This document shows positions 7,523 to 63,678 of a stretch of DNA of 64,000 bases, piece by piece. A program made the position numbers and the translations under genes. This stretch comes from Vulcanimicrobiota bacterium. Its GTDB lineage: Bacteria; Vulcanimicrobiota; JAJTBE01. The first letter of the stretch is position 1, and every line of letters starts with the position of its first letter. Where the stretch lies: the NCBI GenBank assembly GCA_021107945.1, contig JAIORV010000097.1, positions 2,972 to 66,971 on the forward strand, in the 5' to 3' direction. The notes beneath the pieces are model-generated. The model saw only the letters and a program-made list of their open reading frames with translations, ran no database searches and had not been told where the DNA came from.

Positions 7523-7778
7523 ACAATAATTTCGCAAAAGGTAGGAAGGGGGGATACTTTGCTTTTCCGGATAGTATTCATGCGGGTTCAAGTGGGTGAG
7601 CATGAAGTGGGCAAGCATGAAGTTGGCAAAATGAAGGGAGTGTGGGGCATCTTTAGGACAAAATGTTTCCAAAACAGGATAATACAGTGCTATTTTATAC
7701 CAAATACGACACGATTTTCTATAACTAAAAAACCCACCGTTTTCTTGAAATGGCGGGTTTTGTTATTGTTTTTGGGAT

Positions 7779-7851
7779 GGGCGGAGAGGGACTTGAACCC
7801 ACGACCTCCTGAATGTAAGTCAGATGCTCTAGCCAACTGAGCTACCCGCCC
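7779..7851 (-). tRNA. tRNA-Val (anticodon TAC)
   Basis: Reverse complement reads GGGCGGGTAGCTCAGTTGGCTAGAGCATCTGACTTACATTCAGGAGGTCGTGGGTTCAAGTCCCTCTCCGCCCA. It folds as a cloverleaf with anticodon loop CTTACAT. CCA is not encoded. Confidence 0.85.
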
Positions 7852-7959
7852 GATGAAAAAATGAAAAATTATCCTTTCCGGGTAATATTCTTTACGATTA
7901 TTTGCCCGGATTTGACAGGAAGGCAGGAATATTTCACCTGCCTCCGTCGATTGTAAAGT

Positions 7960-8032
7960 GACCCCAACGGGATTCGAACCCGTGATCTTCACCTTGAAAG
8001 GGTGATGTCCTAGGCCGCTAGACGATGGGGCC
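7960..8032 (-). tRNA. tRNA-Glu (anticodon TTC)
   Basis: Reverse complement reads GGCCCCATCGTCTAGCGGCCTAGGACATCACCCTTTCAAGGTGAAGATCACGGGTTCGAATCCCGTTGGGGTCA, with anticodon loop CTTTCAA. Confidence 0.85.
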
Positions 8033-8100
8033 GTTTTTTATACCAAAATTATTAACATTCCGGTGGATCTTCCACATAAAACAAAGGCCATCAAATAGGA

Positions 8101-8173
8101 TGGGCCCACCCGGATTCGAACCAGGGACCGATCGGTTATGAGCCGACTGCTCTACCGCTGAGCTATGGGCCCT
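8101..8173 (-). tRNA. tRNA with CAT anticodon (Met elongator or Ile2/lysidine type)
   Basis: Reverse complement reads GGGCCCATAGCTCAGCGGTAGAGCAGTCGGCTCATAACCGATCGGTCCCTGGTTCGAATCCGGGTGGGCCCA, with anticodon loop CTCATAA. The G1-C72 pair argues against an initiator. Confidence 0.8.
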
Positions 8174-8334: not shown

Positions 8335-9665
8335 ATTTCCAATATTGAGTCATGAAGTGGGAAGTGGGAAATGGGAAAAAATAGAAATTTTGAGATTTTT
8401 CGATGTTCTTTTATCCGTTGTTCGTTTTGGGGGGTGCGGTGAAGAGAGAGAGAGCCACCGGGAAGACGCTGAAGCGCCTGTTTTTTATAGGGTTGTGTGT
8501 ATTCCCTTCTTCCCCCGGATAAATCCGGGGGTTAGTCTCATGGGAGATCTAAAAACCTCTCATGCCTGACCTCCATCCTCCAGCTTCCATATTCCGTCAT
8601 CCATTACCCTCTGCGTTCTCTGTGGTGAATGGGAAAAAGGAAAAGGGAAAAAAGGAAAAGACCGGGGTTTTGAGGTTTTTCGATACTCTCTTATCCGTTA
8701 TTATTCATTTTCTTCGTGACCTCCGTGGCTTCGTGGTGAATTCCATTCTCCATTCTCCGGACCCCTCTGTGTACTCTGTGCCCTCTGTGGTAAAAAAACA
8801 CTTGTCCTTCGAACCTCTTTGTGGGGTTTGTGGTGAATAAATAAATCTGTCATACATTTTTCACAATCCGTTTTATCGGGATTGGGAAATCCCTCCTACA
8901 GATCTAATCTTTCATGACATCTCCTCAACCTCCGATGGGGACTGGATTTCAGAGGTCAGGAGATGTCCCGGGACAAGGTCTTCAAGCTCCGTTGCTTTGC
9001 CTCGGACATCCGGTTTAGAGGTTTTTCAAATATATGGAAGGGGGAAATGAGAAGCGAGAAATGAGAAAAGAATTTCTCAACTCTCGTCTCCCGATTCTCT
9101 TTTCTTATTTCCACCACACCATTAACCTTCAGAATCTGGAAGCCTCTGAAGAGGCTAAGACGGCGTGGTTAAGCCATTCTCTCTCCACCACAATAAATTG
9201 TGGTGTTGTTCTAAAAAACAATTGCGGTGTTGTTCTAAAATTAATAGTTGCATTATTGTCAATGCACTCTAAATATCACATCCATTTCCATGTAAATGTA
9301 AATGGATATAAAGATTAGCCTACAGATCCGGGCTCGTATTTTTCTTCGTGTCCTCCGTGGCTTCGTGGTGAATTCTATCCTCCATTCTCCGGACCCCTCT
9401 GTGTACTCTGTGCCCTCTGTGGTAAAAAAACACTTGTCCTTCGAACCTCTTTGTGGGGTTTGTGGTGAATAAATAAATCTGTCATACATTTTTCACAATC
9501 CGTTTTATCGGGATTGGGAAATCCCTCCTACAGATCTGGGCTCTATTTTTCTTCGTGTCTGGAGCCTGCGCTGAACTTGTTTCAGTGTGTCTTCGTGGTG
9601 AATTCTATCCTCCGAATTCCTCTGCGATCTCTGCGTCCTCTGCGTTGAAAAACACATCCGAGCTG
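8335..9665. repeat. 1.3-kb mosaic array of short modular repeat words downstream of the tRNA cluster; includes two near-identical ~195-bp direct repeats (8710-8905 and 9343-9537)
   Basis: Contains catgaagtgggaagtgggaaatggg, ctccgtggcttcgtggtgaa, the CCCCCGGATAAATCCGGGGG palindrome, ccacaataaattgtgg+tgttgttctaaaa (twice), and ttatcgggattgggaaatccctcctacagatct (twice). The ORFs the track predicts here are low-complexity translations of the repeats. Confidence 0.8.
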
Positions 9666-14884: not shown

Positions 14885-14995
14885 CAGGGGACGAGATCCT
14901 TCGCTGATTAATACATCGGAGGTAAGTAAAACCCGTCCTTGCCAGGATTTATCCAGGAATGGTAAAGATCGTATTCCGCTCAGGATGACACAGCA
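14885..14995. repeat. truncated copy (one end) of the MITE-like element family, in reverse orientation
   Basis: gatccttcgctgattaatacatcggagg is the reverse complement of 35391-35418. ccgctcaggatgaca is the reverse complement of the 35321 terminal repeat. The spacing between the two matches the full copy. Confidence 0.5.
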
Positions 14996-15112: not shown

Positions 15113-15499
15113 TTATAGATATTTTTGAGTTTGTAAATATAATCTGACATTTTCAATAAAAACCTTGCCCTTTTCAAGTAAATCAACTGCATCTTGACTG
15201 GAGATAACCGGTATATATCCATATTCCCCGATTTGTCGCTTTTCAAAAGCAAGATGTAATTCTCTTCCCATGATACCTGGAAAAATTCCTGTTTTCACGA
15301 AATGTTTCCCAAAATTTGAGATCACGCCTTTATGAGATGAAAATGTTAGATTTTTTGTTAGCAATACCGCCTGAGTTGAGAAGAACATTGCATAATATGT
15401 TCTGGAAACTGATGATTCATAATCTTCAGCATTAATAAGTATTTCAGAACTCTTAATATATTTTTCAGCCTTTTCTATCAGAGACTTGATCTCATTCAT
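15113..15499 (-). CDS. HEPN domain protein (toxin of a HEPN/MNT pair)
   Basis: Small helical protein immediately downstream of a minimal nucleotidyltransferase. The start ATG overlaps the upstream stop (ATGA), which indicates translational coupling. Confidence 0.7.
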   Translation of the reverse strand: MNEIKSLIEKAEKYIKSSEILINAEDYESSVSRTYYAMFFSTQAVLLTKNLTFSSHKGVISNFGKHFVKTGIFPGIMGRELHLAFEKRQIGEYGYIPVISSQDAVDLLEKGKVFIENVRLYLQTQKYL

Positions 15500-15817
15500 A
15501 CAGCTATCCCTTCTCTTTTCACATTTAAAAGAACAGGTCCCTTGCTGCATTGTAATTCTTTCTCTGAAACAGGATAAATTGCTATTAGTGTATCATGTTT
15601 AAGAGCAATTTCATAAATTGTATCTATCATTCTGTCTATCTCTTTCCCCGGCGATACTTTCCCCGACAAAACAATCATCAGGTCAATATCCGAATTATCA
15701 TCGGCATCACCCCGCGCCCAGGAGCCATAGAGAATAATCTGCCTTAACCTCTTTCCATAGAGTACTGAGATTTTTCTCTTTACTTCATCTAAAATAATAT
15801 TAATTTCCATATTTGAC
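15496..15817 (-). CDS. minimal nucleotidyltransferase (MNT) antitoxin
   Basis: ILYGSWARGDADDNSDIDLMIV is the classic GS...DxD Pol-beta nucleotidyltransferase motif. RBS gaggt lies 5 nt before the ATG at 15817. Confidence 0.85.
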
Positions 15818-17224: not shown

Positions 17225-17535
17225 CGTAGATTTTTTTTTTTTGATCTGCGGCGAGACGCCGCAGCCACCGGCATTGTTATAATGGTGGGGGCGGCGTCTC
17301 GCCGCCCAAACAAGGGGGATATGGGGAATGGGACATGGGAGTCGGGAAGCGGGATCCGTTCCCCTTTGTGGTCTTTGCAATGAAAAACAAATCCGTTATC
17401 GGGACGAGGACGTCCCTCCTATATGGGAAATGGGAAAAGTGATGTGGGAAAGGGGATCCGTCCTCCGTGTCCTTCGTGCCTTCGTGGTAATAAAAAATGG
17501 GATCAGGGCTCCGTTTATCGGGATTGGGAAATCCC
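17225..17535. repeat. mosaic repeat array: T-run, then the GCGGCGAGACGCCGCAG inverted-repeat element, then gggaa/tggga words, then two TTATCGGGA-hairpin-TCCCTCCTACAG modules
   Basis: ctgcggcgagacgccgcagccacc...ggtgggggcggcgtctcgccgc forms a 22-bp-arm inverted repeat. Modules follow at 17395-17430 (stem GGGACG/CGTCCC) and 17510-17545 (stem GGGATT/AATCCC). Confidence 0.8.
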
Positions 17536-17537
17536 TC

Positions 17538-18221
17538 CTACAGTTCTGATACCTGAACTTCGGCCTCAGGCTCTCCTGTCTCCGGCTCCTGACTTCCGGC
17601 ATCTTTTCCCTTGTCTTTATGGGGGATCTTTATGAATTTCATGATCAGGAACCCACCTATAAGTAAAGCCATAAAGGCAATTGTCAGGGTGTTAAAGTGA
17701 TGATCGATAAAGTACTGGATTTTCTCACCGAATATCATGATAAGACCGGCAACCAGGAAGAACCTTGCTCCCCTGCTTATCACCGTTACTATTACAAATT
17801 TCCAGAAATCGACATAAAAAACACCGGCAGATATGGCAAATACCTTGTAAGGTACGGGTGTGAACCCGGCTATCCCGATAGCCCATTCCTCGTATTTCTG
17901 GAAATAACCATGTATCTGTTCAACTCTCTCTTCTTTTACGAATTTCAGGAGGACAGGCTTTCCGCCCTTGATCCCGATAAAGTAACCCAGCATTCCGCCT
18001 GTTACGGATCCCACAAGACATATAAGCGCATATAAAAGCGCCAACTTCGGATTTGCCACGCACATTGCGACAAGCAGGAGGTCCGGTGGAACGGGAAAAA
18101 ACGATGACCCGGAAAACGCCAGAATGAGAAGGGCAATGGGTGCATACGGCGTCTGAGCCCACATGAGAACCCAATCTTTCAGCCAATGTATCCAGTCTAT
18201 TGCATTATGAAACAACTGCAT
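17538..18221 (-). CDS. DedA/YqaA (SNARE-associated, TVP38/TMEM64) family membrane protein
   Basis: FFPVPPDLLLV motif, about five TM helices, and a charged C-terminal tail. Confidence 0.6.
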   Translation of the reverse strand: MQLFHNAIDWIHWLKDWVLMWAQTPYAPIALLILAFSGSSFFPVPPDLLLVAMCVANPKLALLYALICLVGSVTGGMLGYFIGIKGGKPVLLKFVKEERVEQIHGYFQKYEEWAIGIAGFTPVPYKVFAISAGVFYVDFWKFVIVTVISRGARFFLVAGLIMIFGEKIQYFIDHHFNTLTIAFMALLIGGFLIMKFIKIPHKDKGKDAGSQEPETGEPEAEVQVSEL

Positions 18222-22074: not shown

Positions 22075-22480
22075 ATTTGAAGGATCAAAATTAACCGCAA
22101 AGAAGCAAAGAACGCAAAGTGGTCTTTGTGGTGAAAAAACAAATCCATTATCGGGACGAGGACGTCCCTCCTACAGATCTGGAGAATTCCAACCTCCGAA
22201 TCCCTCTGTGGTCTTTGTGGTCTTTGCGGTGAATAAACAAATCCGTCGTCCATTATTCGCAATCCGTTTATCGGGATTAGGAAATCCCTCCTATAAAGGA
22301 AAGGGGAAAGGGGACATGGGAAACGAGATCCATTATCCGTCATCCATTATCCATTTTCCAATATCCATTATCCGTTTGTCGAGATGGTCATACAGATTCG
22401 ACCTGCGTCATCAGTTTTCCGAATCCCTCCGTGTTCTCCGTGGCTTCGTGGTGAATGGAAAAAGAGAAAAGGGATTCTTC
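22075..22480. repeat. mosaic repeat array (ccgcaaagaagcaaagaacgcaaag words, two TTATCGGGA-hairpin modules, atccattatccg words)
   Basis: Modules at 22155-22190 (stem GGGACG/CGTCCC) and 22262-22300 (stem GGGATT(A)/AATCCC). ccattatccgtcatccattatccattttccaatatccattatccg lies at 22320-22380. Confidence 0.8.
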
Positions 22481-33349: not shown

Positions 33350-33935
33350 TATTTACCTCCTATTTATGGAAAATGGGAAATGGGAAATGGGAAATGGGAA
33401 ACGGGATGCGGGAAACGGGAGATGAGAAGTGGGAAATGGGATCCGGTCTCCGTTTTCTTTATTTCTTCACCGGGAAGCCACTGAAGTGGCTGAGATAAAG
33501 AGCAAGAAAAGGGTGGGATTTCCTTCTTCCCCCGGATTAATCCGGGGGTTAGTCTCATGGAGGTTTAAAAACCTCCGCTACCAAATTTCCGCTCTCCGCT
33601 ACCCGACCTCTGTAATCCGTTCTCCATTCTCCGTCAATATTCATTTTCTTCGTGTTCGGAGCCTGCCCTGAATTTATTTCAGGGCGGCTTCGTGGTGAAA
33701 AACAAATCCGTCCTCCGTATTTCAGCCTCTGATTTCCGTTTTCCGGCCTCTGGACTCTTTTATCCGTTCTCCTTTTCGAGCATTTTTTCCTGAAACCTTC
33801 CTATAGGCAAAAACGGCGGAGATTTAACCCGCCGTTTTTCTGAGAATATATTAACAATTTTTTATCCGTTATCTGTCATCCGTTATCCATTGTCCTTTTA
33901 TCGGGATGGGGACATCCCTCCTACAAATCCGTTAT
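33350..33935. repeat. mosaic repeat array occupying the position where pheS would be expected
   Basis: Contains tggaaaatgggaaatgggaaatgggaaacgggatgcgggaaacgggagatgagaagtggg, the gccactgaagtggc hairpin, the CCCCCGGATTAATCCGGGGG palindrome, the GGAGGTTTAAAAACCTCC palindrome, and the ttatcgggatggggacatccctcctacaaatccg module at 33895-33935. Confidence 0.8.
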
Positions 33936-33938
33936 CCG

Positions 33939-35144
33939 TTACAATGGGTAGTCCTCCGTCGCTTTATACCGCCAGTCGTAAAAGAATTGTTGCTCAAACT
34001 CGTTTGTAACTTTCTCATCTTCTACATGTGCCCCGATTTCCCGGTTGATATTTAGCCCCTTGTGAGACCAGTTTGCTGAGCCTATCAAGAATTTTTCACC
34101 GTCCACCGTTGCCCACTTTGCATGAAGCTTCTGACCTTTTTCTACCTTGAACCACCGAACCGGGACGCCCGCTTTTTTTAATATATCGAAACTTTTTCCA
34201 TTGGGACTCCATCCTGTATATGCAAAATTGGGATCCAGTATAACCCTGACATCGACCCCTCTTTTATGCGCCTTTTTAAGTTCTTTGATAACCTTTTTAT
34301 TTGATAATACATACAACTCGGCGTGAACTGATTTCTTGGCTCCCTTTATGCTCTCGAGAATCGCCTTTTGCATCGTCTTATCTTCACGCAACTTAGTGCG
34401 CAATCCCATGACGACAGCCTTTTTTCCGCTATTAGCCGCTTCGTCGTCGAATTTCCCGGGTTTTATTTCTTCCCCGGATGATAAATTCCATCCCTCTGCG
34501 AAGTACTCGCTATAATAATTGACTGCAGGCCCTTCAATTTGTATGTCGGCGTCGTGATTTTTCTTTGAATAGGTGTTCCAGTTCATTCCGCCTAGCATTG
34601 CCTTTTTCCCGTCAACAATCATGAGCTTTACATGATCGATCTGGTTTCTTCCCTTGTCAACAGGAAACTCAACTACATTCACGCCGTTCTCTCTCATTAA
34701 TTCCCGCATTTCCCTGCGCAACCTTGATCCTCTTTTTGAAGAACCTGACGTGGGGTCAACAATTACCTTTACATCTACTCCCCTCTTGACAGCTGCAATC
34801 AATTTCTGGGCCATTTTCATATCCTGGAAATCATACATCTCAACTTTTATATTTTCTTTAGCTGAGTCAATCATTTTCTCCGTTGCCTTGAAAATTTTAG
34901 CTCCGCCTATTATAGACTTGATTTTATTTCCTGATGTCACAACCGCTTCCGGGCAATTAAGAGTGGTTTCGTCCTCAATGTTAAGCTTGAGCTCCGATTC
35001 AATAACATCAACACTAAGAGTCTCCGGGGGCTTGGCGGATTTTAGTGCGCCTGACAAGGGAATATTCTGTTTGAGATGATTGATTTTCACAGAAACCTCC
35101 AATATTCTACATATATTATATAACATGTGACCATGGAAATACAA
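33939..35144 (-). CDS. phospholipase D superfamily protein with two HKD motifs (cardiolipin-synthase/PLD-like)
   Basis: HVKLMIVDGKKAMLGGMNW and HAKWATVDGEKFLIGSANWS are two HxKxxxxD motifs. The N-terminal start is uncertain. Confidence 0.8.
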   Translation of the reverse strand: MYFHGHMLYNICRILEVSVKINHLKQNIPLSGALKSAKPPETLSVDVIESELKLNIEDETTLNCPEAVVTSGNKIKSIIGGAKIFKATEKMIDSAKENIKVEMYDFQDMKMAQKLIAAVKRGVDVKVIVDPTSGSSKRGSRLRREMRELMRENGVNVVEFPVDKGRNQIDHVKLMIVDGKKAMLGGMNWNTYSKKNHDADIQIEGPAVNYYSEYFAEGWNLSSGEEIKPGKFDDEAANSGKKAVVMGLRTKLREDKTMQKAILESIKGAKKSVHAELYVLSNKKVIKELKKAHKRGVDVRVILDPNFAYTGWSPNGKSFDILKKAGVPVRWFKVEKGQKLHAKWATVDGEKFLIGSANWSHKGLNINREIGAHVEDEKVTNEFEQQFFYDWRYKATEDYPL

Positions 35145-35271
35145 ATAATGACGATTTCACGGGGTAATGGAGCAAACTCAGGTACGAAGCCGTTTCGTCG
35201 ATTTACAACCCATCTTGCTAACAACTTTTGTTTGTTAACAATTTGTTAACTTGTGAAATATTATACCACCA

Positions 35272-35590
35272 GAAAACCTATAACATAACTTACGCATTTC
35301 CAGGAAAGAAACGCATGAAATTGTCATCCTGAGCGGAATATGATCAGTTTACTTTAAAAAACAAACCTTTCTCAGGAACGGGGCTTGCATACCTCCGATG
35401 TATTAATCAGCGAAGGATCTTTTCTCATAGCGAATGATCTCCTTCAAGCAAATATTAAAGAGATTCTTCGCTATGTGAACCTTTGGAGATCAAGGAAATC
35501 CCGTCCTTGAGAAAGTCATTGGAGTAAAGTAACTCTCTCGTGTATCGCTCAGAATGACAATTGCGTAAGTCCTACTATAACATAACTATG
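35272..35590. mobile_element. MITE-like non-autonomous element: ~26-bp terminal inverted repeats (acttacgca..attgtcatYctgagcg) flanked by the direct repeat ctataacataact
   Basis: Left end ttgtcatcctgagcgg (35321-35336). Right end cgctcagaatgacaattgcgtaag (35545-35568). ctataacataact occurs on both outer sides as a TSD-like direct repeat. Homologous copies lie at 45395-45730, 14885-14995 and 52780-52945. Confidence 0.55.
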
Positions 35591-35659
35591 CGGCTTTAAT
35601 ATTGATAATACCATGAGAAATATCCGGCATTTGTTTCTTAATAAAATCACCAAATAATA

Positions 35660-37145: not shown

Positions 37146-39224
37146 TTATTCATCAGATTTATTCGCTTCCGCTATGATTGGCTCGGCAATCTGACTCGGC
37201 ACCTCTTCATAAAAAGAGAATTTCATTGCAAATTCTCCTTTTCCCTGTGTCAGGGAGCGAAGATCGATTGAATACCTGAGCATCTCTGACAGAGGAACCT
37301 TCGCCTTGATTGATTGCATTCCGTCTCCCAGAGGATCCATTCCCAGTATGCGTCCCCTCTTGGAGTTGAGATCGCCGATACAGTCACCCATAAATGATTC
37401 CGGGACAACGACCTCCACGTCCATAATAGGTTCGAGTAGGATCGGAGTCGCCTTGTGTGCTCCCTTTTTGAATGCCATTGAAGCGGCAATCTGAAAAGCT
37501 ATATCAGAAGAATCAACGGTATGGTAAGAACCGTCAAAAAGTTTTACTCTAACACTTGTCACGGGGAATCCTGCAAGAAAGCCCTCTTCCATTGCTCTTT
37601 TTACTCCTTTTTCTACCGAAGGAATAAAGTTTTTGGGAATCACGCCTCCCACAATTTTGTCAACGAATTCAAATTCCTGATCGCGGGGTAACGGCTCAAG
37701 CTCCAGATAGACATGGCCATATTGTCCCCTACCTCCGGATTGCTTTTTGTACTTGTGCTCAATTTGAGTTTTTGACTTGAGAGTTTCCTTGTAAGGAATC
37801 TTTGGAGTTTTAAGATCCGCTTCGAGTCCAAATTTCCTCTTAAGTCTCTCCATTACAATATTAAGATGAAGTTCACCGATTCCGTAAATCACGGTCTCCT
37901 TCGTCATTTTATCCCGATTAACCTTAATAGTGGGATCCTCTTCAAGGATTTTTGACAAAGCGTTACCTAGCTTGTCTTCATCACTCTTGCTCTTCGGATA
38001 TACCGACATTGACATGAGCGGATCGGGAAAGTCTATCCGGGGAATTTCCACAGGCCTTGATTTATCGCAAAGCGTGTCAGACGTGCCGGTGACAGAAAGT
38101 TTGGCCAGAGTAACAATATCACCGGGAGACGCTTGATCTATAACTTCATGATCCTTGCCCCGGAAAATCATCAGGGAACTAATCTTTTCATTTGTCTCTT
38201 TACCGGGGTTCAGCAGTTCTATATCTGGCTTGAGAGTACCTGAATAGACTCTCAATACCGACAGTTTTCCCACATAGGGATCTGTCGTGGTTTTGAAAAC
38301 CAGCGCAGATACAGGTTCCGAGGGGTCGGGATGAATAAGAATCTCTTCTTCCGTTTCTGGTTTTAATCCCTTTATTTCCTTGAAGTGGCCGGGATCGGGC
38401 AGGAAGTCTATGATGAAATCCATCAGATTGGTTATTCCGATGTTCTTGTCGGATGAGCCACAAAGAACCGGAATTACTCTTCCTTCAGTTATCTCCCCTA
38501 AAAGGGACCGGGTTATATCTTCAGGCGTAAGCTCCCCTTCAAAGAATTTCTCCATCAATTTCTCGTCGTCCCCCGCCGCTGCTTCTGCAATTTTCTCTAC
38601 ATATTCCTCGACAATATCCTCCATGTCCTCGGGAATATCAATTTCAATCGGTTTTCCATCTTCAAACGCATAAGCGCTTTTTTTAAGAAGATCAACAACT
38701 CCTATAAAGCTGTCGCCTCTCCCGATAGGAAGCTGTAAAGGTATAAGCTCTCCATCGACTTTAAGGTCTTTGTTGATCTCGTCGATACACTTGTCGAAAT
38801 CCGCATTCTCCTTGTCCATCATATTAATAAAGAATGCCCTTGCTATGTTCGTTTCACAAGAAAATTTCCATACCCTTTCAAGTCCCACTTCCACTCCGCC
38901 GACTGCGGACACCAGGAACAGGCCGCTTTCGACAACCCTCATGGCGCTTTTGACCTGGGATACAAAATCAAGAAAACCCGGTGAATCCAGTATATTCAGC
39001 TTCATGTCCCTGTATTCCACCGGAAGTACTGTTGTAAACAGTGAAATACCCTTTCGTATTTCATCGGGATCAAAATCTGAAGTGGTGCTGCCTGCTGTTA
39101 CTTTTCCAAAACGATCAATCGCTTTCGTGTCGAATAACATCGCTTCTGTTAGTGTTGTTTTTCCGGAACTGCCATGTCCAAATAGTCCTACATTTCTTAT
39201 ATGTGCCGTATCGTATCTCTTCAC
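37146..39224 (-). CDS. elongation factor G family translational GTPase (EF-G or EF-G paralogue)
   Basis: G1 motif GHGSSGKTTLTEAMLF, DSPG, and five-domain EF-G length (692 aa). No rpsG/tuf neighbours, so it may be an EF-G2-type paralogue. Confidence 0.85.
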   Translation of the reverse strand: MKRYDTAHIRNVGLFGHGSSGKTTLTEAMLFDTKAIDRFGKVTAGSTTSDFDPDEIRKGISLFTTVLPVEYRDMKLNILDSPGFLDFVSQVKSAMRVVESGLFLVSAVGGVEVGLERVWKFSCETNIARAFFINMMDKENADFDKCIDEINKDLKVDGELIPLQLPIGRGDSFIGVVDLLKKSAYAFEDGKPIEIDIPEDMEDIVEEYVEKIAEAAAGDDEKLMEKFFEGELTPEDITRSLLGEITEGRVIPVLCGSSDKNIGITNLMDFIIDFLPDPGHFKEIKGLKPETEEEILIHPDPSEPVSALVFKTTTDPYVGKLSVLRVYSGTLKPDIELLNPGKETNEKISSLMIFRGKDHEVIDQASPGDIVTLAKLSVTGTSDTLCDKSRPVEIPRIDFPDPLMSMSVYPKSKSDEDKLGNALSKILEEDPTIKVNRDKMTKETVIYGIGELHLNIVMERLKRKFGLEADLKTPKIPYKETLKSKTQIEHKYKKQSGGRGQYGHVYLELEPLPRDQEFEFVDKIVGGVIPKNFIPSVEKGVKRAMEEGFLAGFPVTSVRVKLFDGSYHTVDSSDIAFQIAASMAFKKGAHKATPILLEPIMDVEVVVPESFMGDCIGDLNSKRGRILGMDPLGDGMQSIKAKVPLSEMLRYSIDLRSLTQGKGEFAMKFSFYEEVPSQIAEPIIAEANKSDE

Positions 39225-41784: not shown

Positions 41785-42180
41785 AATAAGGACCGGGAGC
41801 GGAATAAGGAAATTAGAGAATGAGGAATTTTGCCGCTTAGGAAATTAGGAAACCAGGAAAACGGATAGCTGAGGACGGATCCCGTTTCCCGATTCCCGCT
41901 TCCCGCTTCCCGCTTCCAAAATGGTAGCGGAGGTTTTTAAACCTCCCATGAGAATAACCCACGGATTTATCCGGGGGAACAGGAGGAATCCCAATCCCCA
42001 TGTCTCTCACACAAACCTTCAGACGCTTCAGCGTCTTCCCGGTAAGGAAATGAAGAACTGTTACCTCTGAGGAAATGAGGAAATAAGGATTATGGAAACG
42101 GAGAATGGAGGTCGGAGGTCGGAGGTCGGATCCCATTTCCCACATCCCCTTTCCCACTTCCCTTATGGGAAACATATGAA
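41785..42180. repeat. mosaic repeat array between coaD and gmhA
   Basis: Contains ggaaataagga/ggaaattagga words, cccgcttcccgcttcccgcttcc, the GGAGGTTTTTAAACCTCC palindrome, ggatttatccggggg, and ggaggtcggaggtcggaggtcgg followed by cccatttcccacatcccctttcccacttccc. Confidence 0.8.
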
Positions 42181-43512: not shown

Positions 43513-45285
43513 TCACTTCTCAATAAACGCGTAGATATAGCCCCCTGTAGTTGTTACATATAAAAATCCGTCCGACACAACAGGAGCGGAGCGAATCGGC
43601 GAGTCGAGTTTTTCCTTCCAGACTGTTTCCCCGGAATCTATGGATCTGCAATATAAATACCCGGAGTTGGATCCAAAAAACACGAGATTGTTGCTGACAA
43701 TTGTGGGTGTAGAGAAAATAGCGTCCAGGAGTCTGATTTTATCATTTTTCATCCGCCAAATCTCGCCTCCCGCCCTGAGATCAAGCGCAACCAGGTATTC
43801 GTCCTGGGTTCCTATAAATATTTTCCCATATCCCACCGAGGGGGATCCTTCCACAACACCGTCCAGGTCAACGGCATAAACCCATGAGTCTTCCCCGGTT
43901 TTTAATGAGAGAGCGTAGAAGTGTCCCGACCTGTCCGGTATATAACAATGGTCGTTACACACCGCCGGTGTGGATATAAAACGATGCTGAAGGGGATGGT
44001 CTGCGGGAAACCGCCATATCTCCCTGCCGGTCCCGGAATCCACGCAGAAGACCCTGCCATTCCGCGATGCGACAAAAACCATATTCTCAAATATCGCCGG
44101 GCTCGATAATATCTCGCGTCCTTCCTCGTCAAGGGCGCATTCCTCTTTTCCATTGCCGTTTTCGCCGGACTCAAATTTCCATATTACCTTGCCGGTTTCC
44201 AGGTCAAGTCTGTAAAGCTCTCCCCGGTTATTGACTACGAAAACCCCCTGTTTGCAGGCGAGAATATTTGCCGTTATACTTCCAATATTTTCTTTCCTTT
44301 TCCGGGGAAATACCCAGGCAGGCTTCCCTTTTTGGGCATCACTTGCATAAACCTTGCCGTCACAGGATCCGGCATAGATAATATCATTGTAAATTGCGGG
44401 GGTAGATGCGATAAAACCACTCGTGGGGCGTTTCCATACAACAGCTCCGGTATATTGATTGAGAGCATGCAGGTTCATATCGCCTGAGCCGTAATAGACA
44501 AGACCTTTATATACGATTGGAGATGAAAGTATGCCGGCTATTTGTCTTTTATCAGGGTATGTCCATTTTCTCTTAAGGGCCGGAGTTATTTTCTGACTGC
44601 TGTTTCCGGTACGTTGGGGGTCTCCCTTGAACATGGGGTAACTCCTGCCGTCGAGTTCCATCTTCTTATTGCAATGAATACATTTATTTTTCCATACATC
44701 CGTATATCCCCTACATTCAGAGCAAGTTCGCAATTGGCGATTGCATTCGGGGCAAAAGTTTAAATTTTCTTTAATTGTTTTACCACAGCCGATATATGGG
44801 CATTGAATTATGGGCTTCAGATTAATGCTGGTCTCCCTGTGGAATTCCTTGCAAAGATCAAATCCACAACCGACGCAGAATTTTGCCCCGGGTTTCGATG
44901 TGAGAGTGCCGCAACGTGGACACCGGCTAATTTTCATCTCGACTGTTTTTTTAACGCCACCGGGTGAAGGAGGGAGTATTAACCTCAGGGGCTTTCTATT
45001 CGAGCCGGGAATATCCTTATAGACCCTTGTTTTATCATCCGGCAGGGGATCGGCGGCCTTATGCCAATCCTCCTTAAGGGGTCTGCCCATTGTAGTGCAA
45101 AACCGCGCGGTTATCCTGTGAAAACGCCCGCAAAGAGGGCATTTTCTCTTCTCCTGTTTAGTTTTTTTCAACTCTTTTTTTCTCATATTGTGTCCCGGAA
45201 TCCTGATGTTTTTAATATTCTGCAATTTATAAATTGAATATATTTTACCATTTAGAGTAATACCCAATTTCCGTTGGAAAACCAC
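43513..45285 (-). CDS. multi-zinc-ribbon protein fused to a PQQ-like beta-propeller
   Basis: Four CxxC...CxxC ribbons in the N-terminal 200 aa (CPLCG, CPRCG...CVGCG, CPYIGCG...CPECN, CSEC...CIHC). PQQ/BamB-type repeats (YAGS.DG.VYA.D..GK..W.F) follow. Confidence 0.6.
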   Translation of the reverse strand: MVFQRKLGITLNGKIYSIYKLQNIKNIRIPGHNMRKKELKKTKQEKRKCPLCGRFHRITARFCTTMGRPLKEDWHKAADPLPDDKTRVYKDIPGSNRKPLRLILPPSPGGVKKTVEMKISRCPRCGTLTSKPGAKFCVGCGFDLCKEFHRETSINLKPIIQCPYIGCGKTIKENLNFCPECNRQLRTCSECRGYTDVWKNKCIHCNKKMELDGRSYPMFKGDPQRTGNSSQKITPALKRKWTYPDKRQIAGILSSPIVYKGLVYYGSGDMNLHALNQYTGAVVWKRPTSGFIASTPAIYNDIIYAGSCDGKVYASDAQKGKPAWVFPRKRKENIGSITANILACKQGVFVVNNRGELYRLDLETGKVIWKFESGENGNGKEECALDEEGREILSSPAIFENMVFVASRNGRVFCVDSGTGREIWRFPADHPLQHRFISTPAVCNDHCYIPDRSGHFYALSLKTGEDSWVYAVDLDGVVEGSPSVGYGKIFIGTQDEYLVALDLRAGGEIWRMKNDKIRLLDAIFSTPTIVSNNLVFFGSNSGYLYCRSIDSGETVWKEKLDSPIRSAPVVSDGFLYVTTTGGYIYAFIEK

Positions 45286-45394: not shown

Positions 45395-45730
45395 AACAGG
45401 CGATAGGAGTTACACATTTTGTCATTGCATACTCCTGAGCGGAAAACGATTATTTTACTTCACTTGATCAACCCTGGCAAGGAAAAATATACTATACTTC
45501 TGATGTCTTTCACAGCGAAGGATCTCACCCCGGCGTTTATGCTTCAAGATAATCCTCCTTCACTATTGAGACTTGCTCCCTCCAGACCATTGGAGTTTAG
45601 ATTCTTCGCTGTGTCAATTTGCGAGCATCAAATAAACCCCGTCTTGAGAAAGTCGTCGGAATCAAGTGTTTCATTCTTGATCCGCTCAGAACGACAGTTT
45701 GCATGCTCAAAATGACAAGAAGTCCCAGGG
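45395..45730. mobile_element. second full-length, more diverged copy of the MITE-like element
   Basis: tgtcattgcatactcctgagcgg (45420-45442) at one end. ccgctcagaacgacagtttgcatgctcaaaatgacaagaagtcc (45682-45725) at the other. The internal core (agattcttcgctgtgtcaa...cccgtcttgagaaagtcgtcgga) matches 35470-35520. Confidence 0.5.
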
Positions 45731-48190: not shown

Positions 48191-48239
48191 GTCGCAAAGC
48201 TTCATCCCTGGAACTTAAGCTATTTCTACAAGATAATGT

Positions 48240-48440
48240 CTTGTTATTAGGGCGGCGAGACGCCACCCCCACCATTCTTTTGTTATTTGGGCGGCGGGAT
48301 GCTGCCTCTACCATTATATCAACATAGGTGGCTGCGGCGTCTCGCCGCAGTTAAAAAAGGATAATACTTATTTGAAACAGCTTATCCTTTTTCCCATTTC
48401 CCATTTCCCATTTGAAGCAGGGTTCAATCGACGGAAATAG
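48240..48440. repeat. GCGGCGAGACGCCGC inverted-repeat element (inverted orientation, larger loop) plus tttcccatttcccatttccc words
   Basis: gggcggcgagacgccacccccacc...ggtggctgcggcgtctcgccgcag, then ttttcccatttcccatttcccatttgaag. Confidence 0.75.
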
Positions 48441-52556: not shown

Positions 52557-53111
52557 AAACTCAACTCCATTCTTCTTTTATCCCAACCATGCTAATTATA
52601 CAATAAAAAGGGACGAAATAAAAGTGTTGCTTATTAATTATTCTCCTGTCTATTTCTACAATTTTCCAGAAAAAACATTCCCATTTTTTGTTTGTATTTT
52701 GAATTATTTGCAAGAAATACTTCCAACTTTTCCTTTTCAACTCATATCTTTCACCGCAGAGGACGCAGAGAGCACAGATCTTAATTGAGCAGGACTTGCG
52801 CATTTTGTCGTTGCGAGGAGGCGAAGCCGACGAAGTAATGACAATATTCCCGGTAAAAAGTGCTAAACCATAGCTTAACATTGACAATGTTAATATTGGA
52901 ATAAAAACCCTGAATAGGCTGACTAAAAAGTGTGTTGAGTCATCCTGAGCAGGAATATTTTCCTTGAATATTTGTTGCAACATGTTATAACTCCACAAAA
53001 AAACCTGGCAACATATTCATCGGGGCGTTTGTTGTAAATTATCGAACGGCAGGAATTTATGACAAATTGAAAAAACATTGTCCTTGACTATTAATATTTA
53101 ATTTAAGGATT

Positions 53112-57867: not shown

Positions 57868-58019
57868 ACCTCTGCCTTAAACTTCTTCACTCCAGCAGGA
57901 ATCCTATATATTTATACGAACTCATCTTTATTAATATTTATTTTTATTTTGGGATTTACTCTTTTCCTCTCTCATGTTAAGAAAAGTTATTATTTAGACT
58001 ATTTCTAATAAGTATTTTT

Positions 58020-58120
58020 CTTTTTGATCTGCGGCGAGACGCCGCAGCTACCGACGTTGTTATACCGCATTGTTATAATGGTGGGGGCGGCGTCCCGCCG
58101 ACCAAATAACAAGACATTAT
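58020..58120. repeat. third copy of the GCGGCGAGACGCCGCAG inverted-repeat element, preceded by a T-run
   Basis: ttctttttgatctgcggcgagacgccgcagctacc-gacgttgttataccgcattgttataat-ggtgggggcggcgtcccgccgacc. Confidence 0.75.
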
Positions 58121-58154
58121 TTTCGAGAAATAGCTTATATTCTAAATTAAAAAG

Positions 58155-59336
58155 ATGAACGAAAACATTCAACAACTTATTACAAAGGCGGAAAGTCAAT
58201 TAAAACGCAGGGAATATCGTAATGCCAGGCTTCTCTTTCAGGAAGCGGCCATACTTGCCCGGGACGAAAGGGACTTCCCATCTGCCGCCGATAATTTTTA
58301 TGCCGCCGGGACTGTTTCATATAAAGAAGGCAATATTAAGGATGCTATAAAGAATTTTCAAAAGGCGGGGAAAATATATTATAAAACCGGTGATAAGGAG
58401 CACCTGGCGGATGCGGGCTTTAACATAGGAAAATTATATCAGGAAATTGGAAGGCCCGAGGAAGCGGTGGAGCACCTGCGTATGGCTTATGATGTATATA
58501 GAGAACGCGGGGATATTGAAGACCTTGGCGACGCCGGGTACAACCTGGGACTTGTCTATCTGGATCTCGACAACACACAGGACGCTTACGATCCATTTTT
58601 CACAGCACTTGATTATTTCGAGGAAATGCATGAGGATGAGAATTTTGCCGATTGCATCTATCAAATCGGGAAAATGTTTTACATGGGAGGAAATCCTTCA
58701 CCGGCAAGAGAGTATTTCACTAAGGCGGTTGAGTTGTTTGAAAAACTTGGAATTGAAGACAGCAAAGCCGACAGTCTTTTTAAACTGGGGAACATATTCC
58801 TGGATATGGAAAAAACCGAGAATGCCCGGGATTATTTTAAAAAAGCTTTAAAAATATATACAAAGCTTGGCGAGAAAAAATACATGGCAGAAACCCTCAT
58901 AAATATGGGAACTGCAGATGAAGCTGAGTGTAATAATGAATCCGCTCGGGATATGTATAAAAAGGCACTCTCGTTATTTACTTCCCTGGATGATGAAGAG
59001 GGCAGAGGAGATGCTTTTTACAACCTTGCTGCCATGGAAAATGAATCGGGCGATTTTATGGAGGCGCTCAAGTTATTCTCCCTTGGCATGTTCTCCTATA
59101 AAAAATCCGACAATTTAGAGAACGAGGGTGATTCAAACCTTAGAATCGCCGGGATATATCGCAGTATGAATGATATGGATAATGCACTCTTCTTCTATAA
59201 AAAATCTATGATCTGCTTTGAAAAGAGTAAGAATTATAACAGGGCTAAAGAAGTGAGGGAGTTGATGGAGAAACTGATGACGCAGAACGGAGGACGGATT
59301 ACGGAAACCAGAGGTCGGAGGTCAGATGATGGATGA
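58155..59336 (+). CDS. TPR repeat protein (at least eight TPR units); C-terminus encoded by a repeat word
   Basis: Regular A..Y/F.....G.Y..A...F.+A 34-aa periodicity. The last 15 codons (ggacggattacggaaaccagaggtcggaggtcagatgatgg) match the ggaggtcgg repeat family. Confidence 0.7.
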   Translation: MNENIQQLITKAESQLKRREYRNARLLFQEAAILARDERDFPSAADNFYAAGTVSYKEGNIKDAIKNFQKAGKIYYKTGDKEHLADAGFNIGKLYQEIGRPEEAVEHLRMAYDVYRERGDIEDLGDAGYNLGLVYLDLDNTQDAYDPFFTALDYFEEMHEDENFADCIYQIGKMFYMGGNPSPAREYFTKAVELFEKLGIEDSKADSLFKLGNIFLDMEKTENARDYFKKALKIYTKLGEKKYMAETLINMGTADEAECNNESARDMYKKALSLFTSLDDEEGRGDAFYNLAAMENESGDFMEALKLFSLGMFSYKKSDNLENEGDSNLRIAGIYRSMNDMDNALFFYKKSMICFEKSKNYNRAKEVRELMEKLMTQNGGRITETRGRRSDDG

Positions 59337-61539
59337 TGAAAAATGGAAAGTGGATCTCGTTTCCCCCTTCCCCCTTCCCCCTTCCCCCTTCGATATAACT
59401 CTTGTAAACATCGTATTCCCCACTGATATAGGCACAAAAAAATACTACTACGTACCCGTAGGCGTACTTTCCCTGGCTTCATTCCTGGAAGAAAACGGTT
59501 TCTCCGCCGAGGTCCTGGACTATCAGCACGCGGTACATCCCCAGCTCGATAAACCGGAGAGTTACTATGAATTTCTTCTGAAAGCTAAATCAGATATTAT
59601 CGGGATCAGTGTGATGGCAAAAGATATGCCCGGAGTGATAATTGCATGCCAGATGCTGAAAAAGAAATATCCTCATAAGATCATCATTCTTGGCGGGCCC
59701 GGCCCCACAGGTGTGGCGAGAAAGTTGATGGAAGAATTCCCGTTTATCGATTTCGTTGTCCGGGGCGAGGGAGAATATACACTTCTTGAGCTGATGAGGA
59801 CGGTTTGTCGGAAGTCGGAAGATAGAAAATGGATGATGGAAAATGGAGAATGGATGACGGAGAACGGATCCCCTTTCCCACGTCCCTTTTCCCATTTCCC
59901 TTATGGGGGGGATGTCCCCGTCCCGATAAACACTGACAACGACACGGAATCTGACATTTTTAAAAATATAAAAGGCCTTATATATAGAAAAGGCAGCAAT
60001 GTAAAAGTTAACCCACAAAGAGAACGCATTGAAAATATCAATAATCTTCCTCTCCCGGCCTATCACTTAATCAACCCCAATAAATACAACCTTGTTTATT
60101 TTCCATCCACAAGAGGATGCAGACATTTCTGCACTTTCTGCGATCAGCCCGCTCTTTGGCAGGGGAAAGAAATCAGCAAGTCTCCGGATAGTGTTTTTAA
60201 TGAAATCGATTATATTACAAGAGAATTAAATGCGAAATGGGAGGTTGCCTTTTCCGACAATGAATTCTGTGCGGACGAGGAAAGATTCGTGGAATTTTGC
60301 CGCCGATACAAAGATGGAGGGTACAGATTCCATTTTTCAATGGATCGAAGGATAGATTCAGTTGACGAGGATTTCCTGAAAGCCGCCCGCAGTGTCAATT
60401 GCCGCTTGACATTATACGGCGTCGAATCCGGAAGTGACAGAGTTTTAAAAGAGATTAGAAAAGGATTCAAAAGTGAAAACATAAAATCTTCCCTTTTGCT
60501 GTCAGCAAAATATATGGATAACACCATTGCATCATTTATGTTCAATTATCCTTTTGAAGAATTGCGGGACTTCATCGCCACGCTGAATATAATTTATTCA
60601 CTCTGGCATAAACCCACCAGAAATTTTATCACATTTCAACTTCATTACCTGTCTCCACTACCTCGTACCCCGATATTTGAGAAATACAGAGATACGCTTG
60701 TCAGGCGCGATGTCTCGAACATGATGATATCAGGGCAAAATGAAACGCAGTATGAACAAGTTATAGATTATGAGAAGAATAAAGTGGCCGTACTGGCGAA
60801 GGTGTTGACGGAGGACGGAGAACAGAGAGCGGATCCCGCTTCCCATTTCCCGCTTCCCATTTCAAGCATTGTTGACAAATACCCTGATATTTTTGTCCCA
60901 TATTATACATACAAATCACCAGATCTTGACGTGAAGGAACATCTCATAAAATGCCTATATGTCGCCCTTGAGATTGATTTACAAAACGTATTGTTTAGGT
61001 ATGGTGATAATTTTATATACTTCGGGCAAGAAGAGATAAAATTCGAGGGCAAATTCGAGGAGGAAAGAGCTGACACCGTCTATTTCAAGCTTACCAGGAA
61101 TTTCTTTGACAAACCGGAAAGACTCCTGAATTTTCTGAAATCCAAGGGAAATGAAAAATATATCCTCTTCTCCGTTGACCTTGAAGGCGTTCCTGAAGAC
61201 AGGGACACGGGAGACAAGCTTTGCCAATTCCTGGAAGACCTCCGTATGGAAGGATTCAAATTCAAGCTTCTTTCCCATATTCCCCGGAAATATTTCAGAT
61301 TTACCCGGTACCTGAAAATGGAATCACAATTCAACATGCCTGTGGATCCTATATCGGCGCATGATTTCTTCTATGTTGACGAAAAGGGAAGAGTGTGCAC
61401 ATTCGACGGAAATAAATTGGACTATGTATGGGAATATGAAAGCAGAGAAGAGATACAACAAGCTATAGATGAAAATGAGAACCGGGAAGAGGACAAAATT
61501 AAAGAAATTAGAAAAAAAGATACATGCTCAGAAAAATGA
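59326..61539 (+). CDS. B12-binding domain radical SAM enzyme carrying three in-frame repeat-word insertions
   Basis: B12-binding region (IIGISVMAKDMPG...IIILGGPGPTG...FVVRGEGE). Radical SAM cluster motif RGCRHFCTFC (CxxxCxxC). Repeat-derived segments lie at 59341-59396, 59815-59933 and 60808-60866 without breaking the frame. Confidence 0.7.
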   Translation: MMDDEKWKVDLVSPFPLPPSPFDITLVNIVFPTDIGTKKYYYVPVGVLSLASFLEENGFSAEVLDYQHAVHPQLDKPESYYEFLLKAKSDIIGISVMAKDMPGVIIACQMLKKKYPHKIIILGGPGPTGVARKLMEEFPFIDFVVRGEGEYTLLELMRTVCRKSEDRKWMMENGEWMTENGSPFPRPFSHFPYGGDVPVPINTDNDTESDIFKNIKGLIYRKGSNVKVNPQRERIENINNLPLPAYHLINPNKYNLVYFPSTRGCRHFCTFCDQPALWQGKEISKSPDSVFNEIDYITRELNAKWEVAFSDNEFCADEERFVEFCRRYKDGGYRFHFSMDRRIDSVDEDFLKAARSVNCRLTLYGVESGSDRVLKEIRKGFKSENIKSSLLLSAKYMDNTIASFMFNYPFEELRDFIATLNIIYSLWHKPTRNFITFQLHYLSPLPRTPIFEKYRDTLVRRDVSNMMISGQNETQYEQVIDYEKNKVAVLAKVLTEDGEQRADPASHFPLPISSIVDKYPDIFVPYYTYKSPDLDVKEHLIKCLYVALEIDLQNVLFRYGDNFIYFGQEEIKFEGKFEEERADTVYFKLTRNFFDKPERLLNFLKSKGNEKYILFSVDLEGVPEDRDTGDKLCQFLEDLRMEGFKFKLLSHIPRKYFRFTRYLKMESQFNMPVDPISAHDFFYVDEKGRVCTFDGNKLDYVWEYESREEIQQAIDENENREEDKIKEIRKKDTCSEK

Positions 61540-62209: not shown

Positions 62210-62400
62210 TAAGGAATACCAGGAATATTGCCTCTCAGGAAATTAGGAAATAAGGATAACAGATAACGAAAATTTTTCACCACGAAGCCGCGGAGTATGT
62301 AGGAGCACACTATAATAGGGACGTCCTCATCCCGATAAACGGATAATAGAGGATGGATAATGGACGGCAGAGGATGGGCGGCGGAATTTCACTTCAATAT
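62210..62400. repeat. mosaic repeat array downstream of the GNAT gene
   Basis: ggaaataaggaa/ggaaattaggaaataagg words, ttcaccacgaagccgcggag, and a gggacgtcctcatcccgataaacgg module (stem with a G.T wobble). Confidence 0.75.
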
Positions 62401-62908: not shown

Positions 62909-63678
62909 TATATTTTCCTCCAGCCTATATTTTAGAATTTGAAACTATCGAAATTACAACTATATTATAGTCCGCATTGCGAGGAACATCAATTAACAAA
63001 ATGTAAACAATTGCTATATTATTGTTAAAAAAAAGGTAACTATTCACCGCAGAGGGCGCAGAGAGCGCGGAGAGAAGAAAAAGAGGAGAACTTTCATATA
63101 AGTACTTACGCAAAATGAGGAGTGAGTCCTGTCATACTGAAACAAGCCTGCCCTGACGAAGGCCAGGGTTCAGCACAGGTTTCTGAGCGGTACAAGAAAG
63201 AACGTAAGCATTCAGTCCTCCCTTGCAGGAGTAGCATCTTGCCACGAAAATCGAGGCTGGAAGCCTCTCCTTCAGTGATGGGTCTGAATAAATACTTAAT
63301 TTTTATACTCGAAAATCGGTATTCAGAATTTAGTGAATAGCAGACAATGCTTCTAATCCTCTGCGCCTGCACTGAGAATTCTCTGATTTATCTCTGTGCT
63401 CTCTGTGTTCTCTGTGGTAAAAAAACATAGGGGCTGAACAGTAACAAAAAAAAATTTTAAGTGTAGGGACTGCGAAAAATCGATAATGTCAAAATAAATT
63501 CATGAATCTATAGAAGGGAATGTTGCATAGCTAAAGAATTAATTATCTATACTCCCAAAATATGACACAAAGGCTCAGATTAGGACTGAATTATAGTATC
63601 TATATGCAGGGATCACCAGTTCTTGCTCAAGCAAATGACAAAATAGCGGGAGTATATAAAAAATGAGGAGGGATATGT

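Follow-up and report, generated by a model that had tools for sequence, protein, structure and literature searches.

The 64-kb window analyzed here (the term denotes the whole stretch of DNA) carries a family of intergenic elements that are probably non-autonomous, REPIN-like heterodimers of expanded-loop, TGTC-tagged REP units mobilized in trans, a reading in which we place slightly better than even confidence. Each unit is about 100 nt long, and the window holds five of them: two in copy 1, two in copy 2, and one in copy 3. The elements are non-coding, their units and dimers have a defined anatomy, and the closing, or foot, stem of the unit is under selection. The family has dispersed to unrelated loci, with one polarized gain and the long persistence of another copy.

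Architecture of the Units and Dimers

A profile search of the window returned the five units at meaningful E-values and nothing else. Ten units from three sources define a module of 105-107 nt, leader included, in which the leader GGACTTACGCAWTT is followed by an unpaired TGTC, ATYCTGAGCG, an interior of 71-73 nt, and AGCGAAGRATCT. The leader is lineage-specific, 12-18 nt long, and lies 5' of the head. In all ten long units 71-73 nt separate CTGAGCG from AGCGAAG, and the unit is closed by pairing of ATYCT-GA-GC with GC-GA-AGRAT, after which comes a tail of CTC, CTT, or CTA. TGTC stands before the stem in c1L, c1R, and c3, in the lone unit L119, and in both units of L121. In L127 the B unit has it and the A unit lacks it, and both units of copy 2 (c2L and c2R) have a degenerate form. 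Based on interior identity, the ten units form two sequence types, with A units 56-91% identical to one another and B units 64-86%, whereas A-B comparisons yield only 38-55%. The stem reads ATCCT...AGGAT in four of the five A units (the exception, from L127, has lost its head and reads CTCT) and ATTCT...AGAAT in B units.

Copies 1 and 2 share the order A(+)-spacer-B(-), with the heads facing outward (Table 1), and the same A(+)...B(-) dimer occurs at five of seven loci, with spacers of ~36-107 nt that can contain other repeat modules. The preliminary description, made from the sequence of the window, had proposed a MITE-like family with 26-bp terminal inverted repeats. The family is indeed dispersed, non-coding, and bounded by inverted ends, but because A and B units are paired heads outward, what appeared to be terminal inverted repeats are the heads of two separate hairpin units. 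The inverted termini reported for copy 1 are present as GTCATCCTGAGCG at 35323-35335(+) and GTCATTCTGAGCG at 35546-35558(-), and the second copy, placed at about 45395-45730, has the architecture of copy 1 with indels, as had been noted. Lone units are known for both types, namely copy 3 (A) and L119 (B). Copy 3 had been regarded as a truncated end in reverse orientation at 14885-14995; the orientation is right, and a 48-nt stretch is 88% identical to copy 1, but the sequence is a complete single unit. The proposed fourth copy at 52780-52945 goes undetected by the unit profile; it comprises a short hairpin, related and preceded by the leader of the family, and a head fragment from 52939. Conversely, the head fragment at 63104-63215 is an additional member that had been overlooked. 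The small module that splits the head of this fragment also splits a B head in L131. The partial copies, five to six in number, are all 5' (head) fragments.

Table 1. Coordinates of the elements and their parts in the window.
Feature	Position	Strand	Remarks
390-nt block that two relatives lack at the orthologous intergenic site	35268..35657		Alignment with L129 and L131; copy 1 plus ~84 nt of unique DNA
Left 13-nt direct repeat CTATAACATAACT	35278..35290	+	Last 3 nt overlap leader ACTTACGCA
Left leader ACTTACGCATTT plus 21-nt local palindromic insertion	35288..35321	+	Jointly form hairpin ACGCATTTCC..GGAAA..GCGT
Copy 1 A-type unit (c1L)	35322..35420	+	TGTC head; stem ATCCT-GA-GC / GC-GA-AGGAT; 73-nt interior; nhmmer E=1.4e-23
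Copy 1 spacer	35421..35460		Joins A and B tails
Copy 1 B-type unit (c1R)	35461..35559	-	TGTC head; stem ATTCT-GA-GC / GC-GA-AGAAT; 73-nt interior; nhmmer E=6.9e-26
Right leader, reverse complement TAGGACTTACGCAAT	35560..35574	-	
Right 13-nt direct repeat CTATAACATAACT	35575..35587	+	Junction also in independent Logan assembly L128
Copy 2 leader GGAGTTACACATTT plus A-type unit (c2L; unit 45420-45525)	45406..45525	+	Head/stem broken by 7-nt insertion TGCATAC; E=1.4e-19
Copy 2 spacer	45526..45598		Length and sequence unlike copy 1 spacer
Copy 2 B-type unit (c2R)	45599..45696	-	Head TGTCGT; stem GTTCT/AGAAT; E=8.5e-22
Copy 2 outer partial second head GTCATTTTGAGCA plus leader GGACTTCTT	45697..45726	-	5' "stutter" of the B unit; also in L127
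Copy 3, lone complete A-type unit (c3)	14894..14990	-	Between stop codons of the PP2C and HEPN genes; E=8.3e-23
"Copy 4" part 1: leader GGACTTGCGCATTT, then short TGTC-headed hairpin of another type	52792..52845	+	GTTGC-GA-GGAGGC GAA GCCGAC-GA-AGTAAT; missed by the unit profile
"Copy 4" part 2: 5' head fragment GAGTCATCCTGAGCAGGAATA...	52937..52965	+	Without 3' half
Extra fragment: leader ACTTACGCAAAATGAGGAGTGAGTCC plus head TGTCAT, then TCTGAGCGGTACAAGAAAGAACGTAAGCAT	63104..63215	+	Head split by nested small-hairpin module; weak profile match 63181-63201

The two-part pattern TCATYCTGAGCG-N60-90-AGCGAAGRATC has three matches in the window (0.00 expected), and the terminus, allowing up to two mismatches, has seven (1.95 expected). 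Other intergenic repeat families also saturate the window. Copy 1 contains no ORF longer than 41 aa, in agreement with the earlier statement that the copies are non-coding. A small ORF in the interior was dropped by eye on account of 1-2 nt indels and in-frame stops, as was an integron attC site, the RYYYAAC/GTTRRRY boxes being absent. Visual inspection likewise led us to drop k-turn and box C/D motifs, an interior IHF site, whose consensus is not matched, and promoter-like hexamers at the B tail, which are not conserved.

Covariation and Folding

The closing stem is the sole conserved helix of the unit and runs A-U, U-A, Y-R, C-G, U-A, tandem G.A/A.G, G-C, C-G. These nine positions comprise seven Watson-Crick pairs, of which the first two are A-T and T-A, and the tandem G.A, and they are 97% paired across the ten units. 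The Y-R pair distinguishes the two types: all five B units have U-A there, four A units have C-G, and the A unit of L127 has U.G. RNAalifold identified no conserved interior helix, either over all units or within each type, and the folding energies of single units are no better than those of shuffled sequences (z from -0.2 to +0.95). A scan against Rfam 15 returned no family for the element, either at the gathering threshold or at E up to 10, and a scan of the whole window returned tRNA and rRNA only.

The whole copy 1 dimer forms one long hairpin with a DNA folding energy of -48.9 kcal/mol (z = -6.9), and the L121 dimer does likewise (z = -5.9). Co-evolution of A and B within dimers was rejected: within-dimer interior identity is 39-49%, no higher than between dimers. 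Since dimer partners are no more alike than non-partners, the long-hairpin pairing is not maintained by selection.

Gain, Dispersal, and Persistence

The preliminary description had suggested looking for empty sites in related strains, and such a site was found in two genomes. Both L129, a sister genome from Logan SRR32473248, and L131, an outgroup from JGI 3300033141, keep the synteny of the genes for EF-G, the 455-aa protein, and PLD, and in both the orthologous intergenic region lacks positions 35268-35657 (390 nt). Their intergenic sequence aligns on both sides, with a terminator hairpin that leads straight to an invariant GTTAACAA-T-TTGTTAAC palindrome. EF-G identity is 89.9% between the window and L129, vs 84.1% and 85.7% for the pairs with L131; with the window and L129 as the closest pair and L131 as the outgroup, the 390-nt block was gained in the window lineage. 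This is the one documented gain event. The gained block is larger than the dimer, since it also takes in the two 13-mers and ~84 nt of unique DNA; the extra 70 nt of the block have no second copy. The right junction is confirmed by the Logan assembly L128, whose contig ends inside the B unit.

The flanking direct repeat noted earlier is genuine at copy 1, where the 13-nt CTATAACATAACT is exact and occurs nowhere else in the window, but it is not a trait of the family, given that copy 2, L121, and L127 have no such repeat of at least 10 nt. Neither of the empty sites, in L129 and L131, contains the 13-mer; the direct repeat could be the duplication of a target peculiar to the window lineage.

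Over 242 nt that take in the spacer, copy 1 and the L121 dimer are 86% identical. None of the genes flanking the L121 dimer matches the window, so the two dimers occupy unrelated loci. The locus of copy 3 is old: the head and ~25 nt are kept in the sister genome, with position and orientation unchanged, and the outgroup may retain a remnant. At the copy 2 locus, the orthologous region of L135 is unalignable and has a 181-aa ORF instead, and the L136 contig does not extend far enough for comparison.

Gene Context

The window is a chromosomal stretch of housekeeping genes, among them those for PheT, EF-G, tRNAs, and GH57. Copy 1 lies upstream of the PLD gene (33939-35144, minus strand) and downstream of the 455-aa gene, copy 2 between divergent genes, one of which is the PQQ/zinc-ribbon gene (43513-45171, minus strand), and copy 3 between the convergent PP2C and HEPN genes. 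The statement that all copies sit directly downstream of genes is thus wrong for two of them, the PLD and PQQ/zinc-ribbon genes being on the minus strand. The varied gene orientations around the copies rule out a fixed cis-regulatory role. Neither the 64-kb window nor the related contigs contain a transposase or HUH/Y1 gene.

Relatives in Other Genomes and Viruses

Outside the window, true homologues of the long unit turned up in just two sources, namely low-GC contigs from a single JGI metagenome and the outgroup genome. They comprise the lone B unit L119 and the A-B dimers L121, L127 (of the copy 2 type), and L131, the last with a 107-nt spacer packed with other repeat modules.

The foot of the unit extends much further. 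When one genome per species was scanned for the two stem halves at a distance of 60-90 nt, the matches listed covered about 14 phyla: Acidobacteriota, Chloroflexota, Bacillota, Bacteroidota, Planctomycetota, Gemmatimonadota, Nitrospirota, Pseudomonadota, Campylobacterota, Bdellovibrionota, Calditrichota, Actinomycetota, Desulfobacterota, and Binatota. Nearly all of the matches listed are a short hairpin version of ~25 nt, GTCATYCTGAGCG-N-AGCGAAGRATC, which has a loop of 3-6 nt and stands alone, in inverted pairs, or in arrays where the 5' half is repeated ahead of one complete hairpin. An independent expanded-loop version of ~95 nt occurs, among the matches listed, at four Acidobacteriaceae loci (L010, L036, L072, and L107). 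Covariation was measured on 320 short hairpins from 113 loci among the matches listed, with the two middle stem positions left free. These free positions are Watson-Crick in 305 of the 320 hairpins (95%), as TC/GA (144), TT/AA (135), CC/GG (14), or TG/CA (12), and the head is TGTC in ~80% and CGTC in ~16%. Rfam has no family at the eight short-hairpin loci that were scanned.

At least 120 viral contigs of IMG/VR also contain the short 25-mer, in many cases with phage structural genes on either side. When ORFs near short hairpins were clustered (113 genomic and 120 viral loci), no recurring transposase was seen; apart from phage structural genes, the clusters consist of families that are ubiquitous (ABC ATPase, response regulator, histidine kinase, sigma-70, SDR, and EF-G). 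Because a gene present once per genome would rarely be sampled in this way, the absence of a transposase near the hairpins is a weak test. BLAST of copy 1 found nothing in plasmids and one chance match of 42 nt in a Flavobacterium phage, no IS with matching ends was found in plasmid and phage collections, and the leader plus head had no match in viral contigs. The terminal 12-mers appear in the full-text literature only as unrelated primers.

Discussion

Comparison with Known Repeat Systems

The closest published counterpart is the CGTC/TGTC-tagged REP superfamily (Di Nocera, De Gregorio & Rocco 2013), which includes Neisseria dRS3 and Rickettsia RPE-4/RPE-6 (PMC3733652). Superfamily members have a CGTC or TGTC (also CCTC) head, A-T/T-A first pairs, stems of 8-9 bp, a 4-5-nt loop, and a 3-nt unpaired tail with consensus CCA. 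They are intergenic, occur in distant phyla, and frequently form inverted dimers with 20-100-bp spacers, of which head-to-head dimers predominate and tail-to-tail dimers are reported as rare, and they are not known to be associated with a transposase gene (PMC3733652). Four family consensus sequences, CGTC-1 to CGTC-4, are published for the superfamily (PMC3733652); membership was judged here from the text of the description. Our units agree with it in their unpaired TGTC head, their ~9-position stem starting A-T, T-A, and their short tail, and in being intergenic, often forming inverted dimers, and occurring in distant phyla. They are unlike it in their loop of 71-73 nt with conserved sequence islands (~15x that of any described CGTC repeat), in the tandem G.A mismatch of the stem, in a tail of CTC rather than CCA, in the tail-to-tail joining of A and B as heterodimers, and in the lineage-specific leader.

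The dimers share with REPINs (Bertels & Rainey; PMC3337134) the composition of two inverted REP-type units with a short spacer that form one long hairpin, the lack of autonomy, singlets as remnants, and persistence at orthologous sites with occasional new insertions. Unlike REPINs, they have a TGTC and not a GTAG (GT[AG]G) head, and their units are three to four times longer (PMC3337134). Furthermore, the RAYT (Y1 HUH) gene of a REPIN system is single-copy and flanked by the same REPs, whereas no RAYT gene was seen in the 64-kb window or the related contigs, and the partners are two distinct types with interiors only about 45% identical. Escherichia coli BIMEs are similar in that they, too, combine two kinds of inverted palindromic unit (Y and Z, as against A and B here) with other short motifs into intergenic mosaics, but the sequences are unrelated, and the IHF and gyrase sites of BIMEs are not evident in our units. 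Correia/NEMIS elements of Neisseria, RUP, ERIC, and Nezha are comparable as 100-300-bp, non-coding, intergenic, and hairpin-capable sequences with ~26-bp inverted ends; the target duplication of Correia elements, however, is always TA and their two ends are parts of a single unit, whereas here the ends self-fold separately. IS1397 and ISKpn1 insert into REP loops, and PATEs are non-autonomous elements derived from IS200/IS605. The former resemble the present case in placing extra DNA in a REP hairpin loop and the latter in consisting of two recognition hairpins only, but the 73-nt interior, unlike IS1397/ISKpn1, lacks inverted ends of its own and a target duplication, and the two hairpins lie on opposite strands, unlike the LE and RE of IS200/IS605.

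Origin of the Dimers

A classical MITE would be a deletion derivative of an IS, with ~30-38-bp terminal inverted repeats bound by a DDE transposase, cut-and-paste movement, and duplication of the target, and its parent would be a DDE transposase gene bounded by inverted GGACTTACGCAWTTGTCATYCTGAGCGG. The inverted arms of copy 1, which the preliminary description had correctly recognized, extend over 38 nt at 74% (35319-35356 vs 35525-35562), with an outer 21 nt at 76%, and the corresponding termini of L121 over 37 nt plus 21 nt (90%). These values, the exact 13-nt direct repeat around copy 1, the small non-coding element, the empty site in relatives, and copies at unrelated loci in related genomes are what such an origin would leave behind. 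The direct repeat, however, is present in one of the four dimers examined (copies 1 and 2, L121, and L127), and the 13-mer is missing from the empty sites. Complete lone units such as copy 3 and L119 have just one "end", the spacer varies and takes in other modules, and the covariation is within the stem of a unit and not between the ends; the ends of copy 1 in fact differ at the covarying position (C vs T), so that end-to-end pairing would break there. It would also be unexpected for the ends of one IS that the terminus is half of a hairpin found in about 14 phyla among the matches listed, and copy 1 is unmatched in plasmid and phage collections. We therefore regard a MITE origin as unlikely. 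In a passive, BIME-like mosaic, old REP-type units would have been shuffled by recombination, slippage, and gene conversion, with no transposition of the dimer. The abundance of other intergenic repeat families in the window with modules nested within modules, the ~84 nt of unique DNA beyond the dimer in the gained block, the arrays of head "stutter" here and in other phyla, and the retention of copy 3 at its orthologous site all fit this explanation. It is nevertheless distinctly unlikely in our estimation, as it does not lead one to expect a dimer that is 86% identical, spacer included, at a non-orthologous locus (L121), a stem under selection across phyla, or the recurrence of the head-outward A-B layout.

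Tandem G.A motifs are typical of RNA. The units could be structured RNA genes or cis-regulatory RNAs, each of ~100 nt transcribed and acting as RNA, and a structured sRNA had been suggested from the outset as the alternative to a mobile element. The closing stem with its compensatory pair and its tandem G.A motif, the tight length of 105-107 nt, and the G.U pairs that the short relative at 52792-52845 requires are consistent with this possibility. Against it stand the failure of Rfam to return a family at E up to 10, folding energies no better than those of shuffled sequences, and an interior without a conserved helix. Moreover, both strands are represented within one element, the gene contexts are unidirectional, divergent, and convergent, copy 1 is missing at orthologous sites, and many copies are truncated. 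Together these points make an RNA function highly improbable.

For the REPIN-like heterodimer that we favor, we infer mobilization on single-stranded DNA by an enzyme reading head plus foot. Y1/HUH transposases act on REPs and on the ends of IS200/IS605 through a 5' tetranucleotide that adjoins the foot of a hairpin (PMC6006769). By analogy, copies would be made in trans on single-stranded DNA by a putative enzyme that reads the tetranucleotide and the hairpin foot, as HUH/Y1 enzymes do; the "TIRs" would be a by-product of the inverted dimer, and any effects on neighboring genes would be incidental. All incomplete copies keep the head, which suggests that copying or processing begins there. 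Counting against the REPIN-like reading are the lack of an HUH/Y1 or other transposase gene in the window and the related contigs, the CTC tail, the ~15x loop, the rare dimer orientation, the documentation of a single gain, and a gained block larger than the dimer. HUH transposition makes no target-site duplication, and the 13-bp direct repeat at copy 1, which looks like one, counts against this reading as well.

A bolder version, which we think quite unlikely, is that A and B are the first cargo-carrying members of the orphan CGTC/TGTC superfamily and constitute a new class of non-autonomous elements mobilized as single-stranded DNA. The two types would then be a pair of differentiated ends, both made of a REP foot and a 73-nt insert that is constrained in length and contains conserved islands such as CAAGGACGGG and CTCCGATG. 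Were this true, the near-identical foot in about 14 phyla (among the matches listed) and in viruses would point to a very widespread enzyme or host factor; this putative factor would recognize TGTC together with the ATYCT-GA foot, the head, which every partial copy keeps, would be where copying begins, and the present lineage would offer a handle for finding the enzyme.

Significance

The CGTC/TGTC REP superfamily was described in 2013 as ancient, present in several phyla, and lacking a known transposase (PMC3733652). The elements reported here add a loop that has grown from a few bases to 73, with its length conserved and with two distinct partner types, and a clean, polarized gain, seen by comparison of orthologous sites, in a lineage that has received little study and whose MAG is labelled Eremiobacterota. 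They also extend the 25-base foot, with strong stem covariation, to viral contigs and to many more phyla than had been reported. In practical terms, the elements can extend or terminate adjacent ORFs, and their masking or annotation in MAGs is advisable. They also break short-read assemblies at the copy 1 locus, as in Logan L128, which ends in a unit.

Conservation of the 25-nt hairpin

The short hairpin GTCATYCTGAGCG-N-AGCGAAGRATC, a 25-nt loop-less version of the hairpin of the long unit, is near-identical across at least about 14 phyla, represented by both MAGs and genomes (loci L003–L115 of the genome collection), and across IMG/VR viral contigs, of which at least 120 carry it (L138 onwards in the viral collection). 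Its stem occurs in four Watson-Crick variants and is paired in 305/320. Rfam contains no family for this hairpin, and the literature yielded no match to its sequence.

Partial copies and insertion into the head

In "stutter" arrays, a block made up of the head, the 5' hairpin half and a short spacer recurs three to five times in tandem ahead of a single complete hairpin; the truncation point is the same within one array and different between arrays. As in these arrays, the partial long units in the lineage of the window all keep the head. The head can itself be split: a small hairpin module lies between TGTCAT and TCTGAGCG at the identical point in two different genomes, and the module of the window has an additional hairpin nested within it. 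The unit head itself may be an insertion target.

Neighbouring genes

In the outgroup genome, the orthologous PP2C-serpin interval lacks the HEPN-domain gene that lies beside copy 3 (window 15113–15550 compared with 6402–7008 of contig L133), although the flanking sequence is alignable in part. This difference is an indel next to a repeat, and the gene concerned is probably of toxin-antitoxin type. On another outgroup contig (L135 1761–1832), the reading frame of the GH57 gene continues into a partial unit, whose head supplies the stop codon, indicating that the repeats can change the C-termini of ORFs; the GH57 product there is 804 aa long, compared with 762 aa in the window.

Of 113 genome loci, four (L043, L089, L097 and L105) have an EF-G gene within 8 kb of the short hairpin, the EF-G gene of the window (37146–39224) is two genes from copy 1, and one short-hairpin locus (L107) adjoins 23S-5S rRNA. 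The hairpins may be commoner in the vicinity of strongly expressed genes, or else these placements may be due to chance.

Upstream of the PLD-like gene, a perfect palindrome is left intact by the copy 1 insertion and is invariant, at the equivalent position, in the window, the sister genome (L129) and the outgroup (L131), whereas the proteins at this locus are only 70–77% identical among the three. The palindrome resembles a binding site for a regulator.

Other intergenic repeats

Many intergenic regions of the window are saturated with other short repeat families, which are frequently nested in one another and are also common to related metagenome contigs. Next to a tRNA cluster (7778–8172) lies a 198-nt direct repeat whose two copies are 98% identical at a spacing of 632 nt.

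Positions and composition of repeat-associated features
Feature	Composition	Position
Head-splitting small hairpin module	ACTGAAACAAG...TTCAGCACAGGT	L131 8046–8080; window 63136–63180
Stutter arrays (examples)		L028 5900–6004; L038; L026; L016; L005; window 45697–45726
Palindrome	GTTAACAA-T-TTGTTAAC	window 35228–35244
Direct repeat		window 8708–8905, 9340–9537
Repeat-rich intergenic regions (examples)		window 8357–8908, 9340–9540, 17232–17550, 22115–22474, 33366–33933, 41823–42170, 48211–48424, 57999–58142, 59280–59931, 62221–62386, 63028–63427
Intergenic repeat family, heptamer runs	GGGAAAT / GGAGGTC type, around GGATCC	window
Intergenic repeat family, runs	TTCACCGCAGAGGNCGCAGAG	window
Intergenic repeat family, hairpins	TTTATCGGGAYNNGGANRTCCCTCCTACAG	window
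Intergenic repeat family, palindromes	GGCGGCGAGACGCCGC	window
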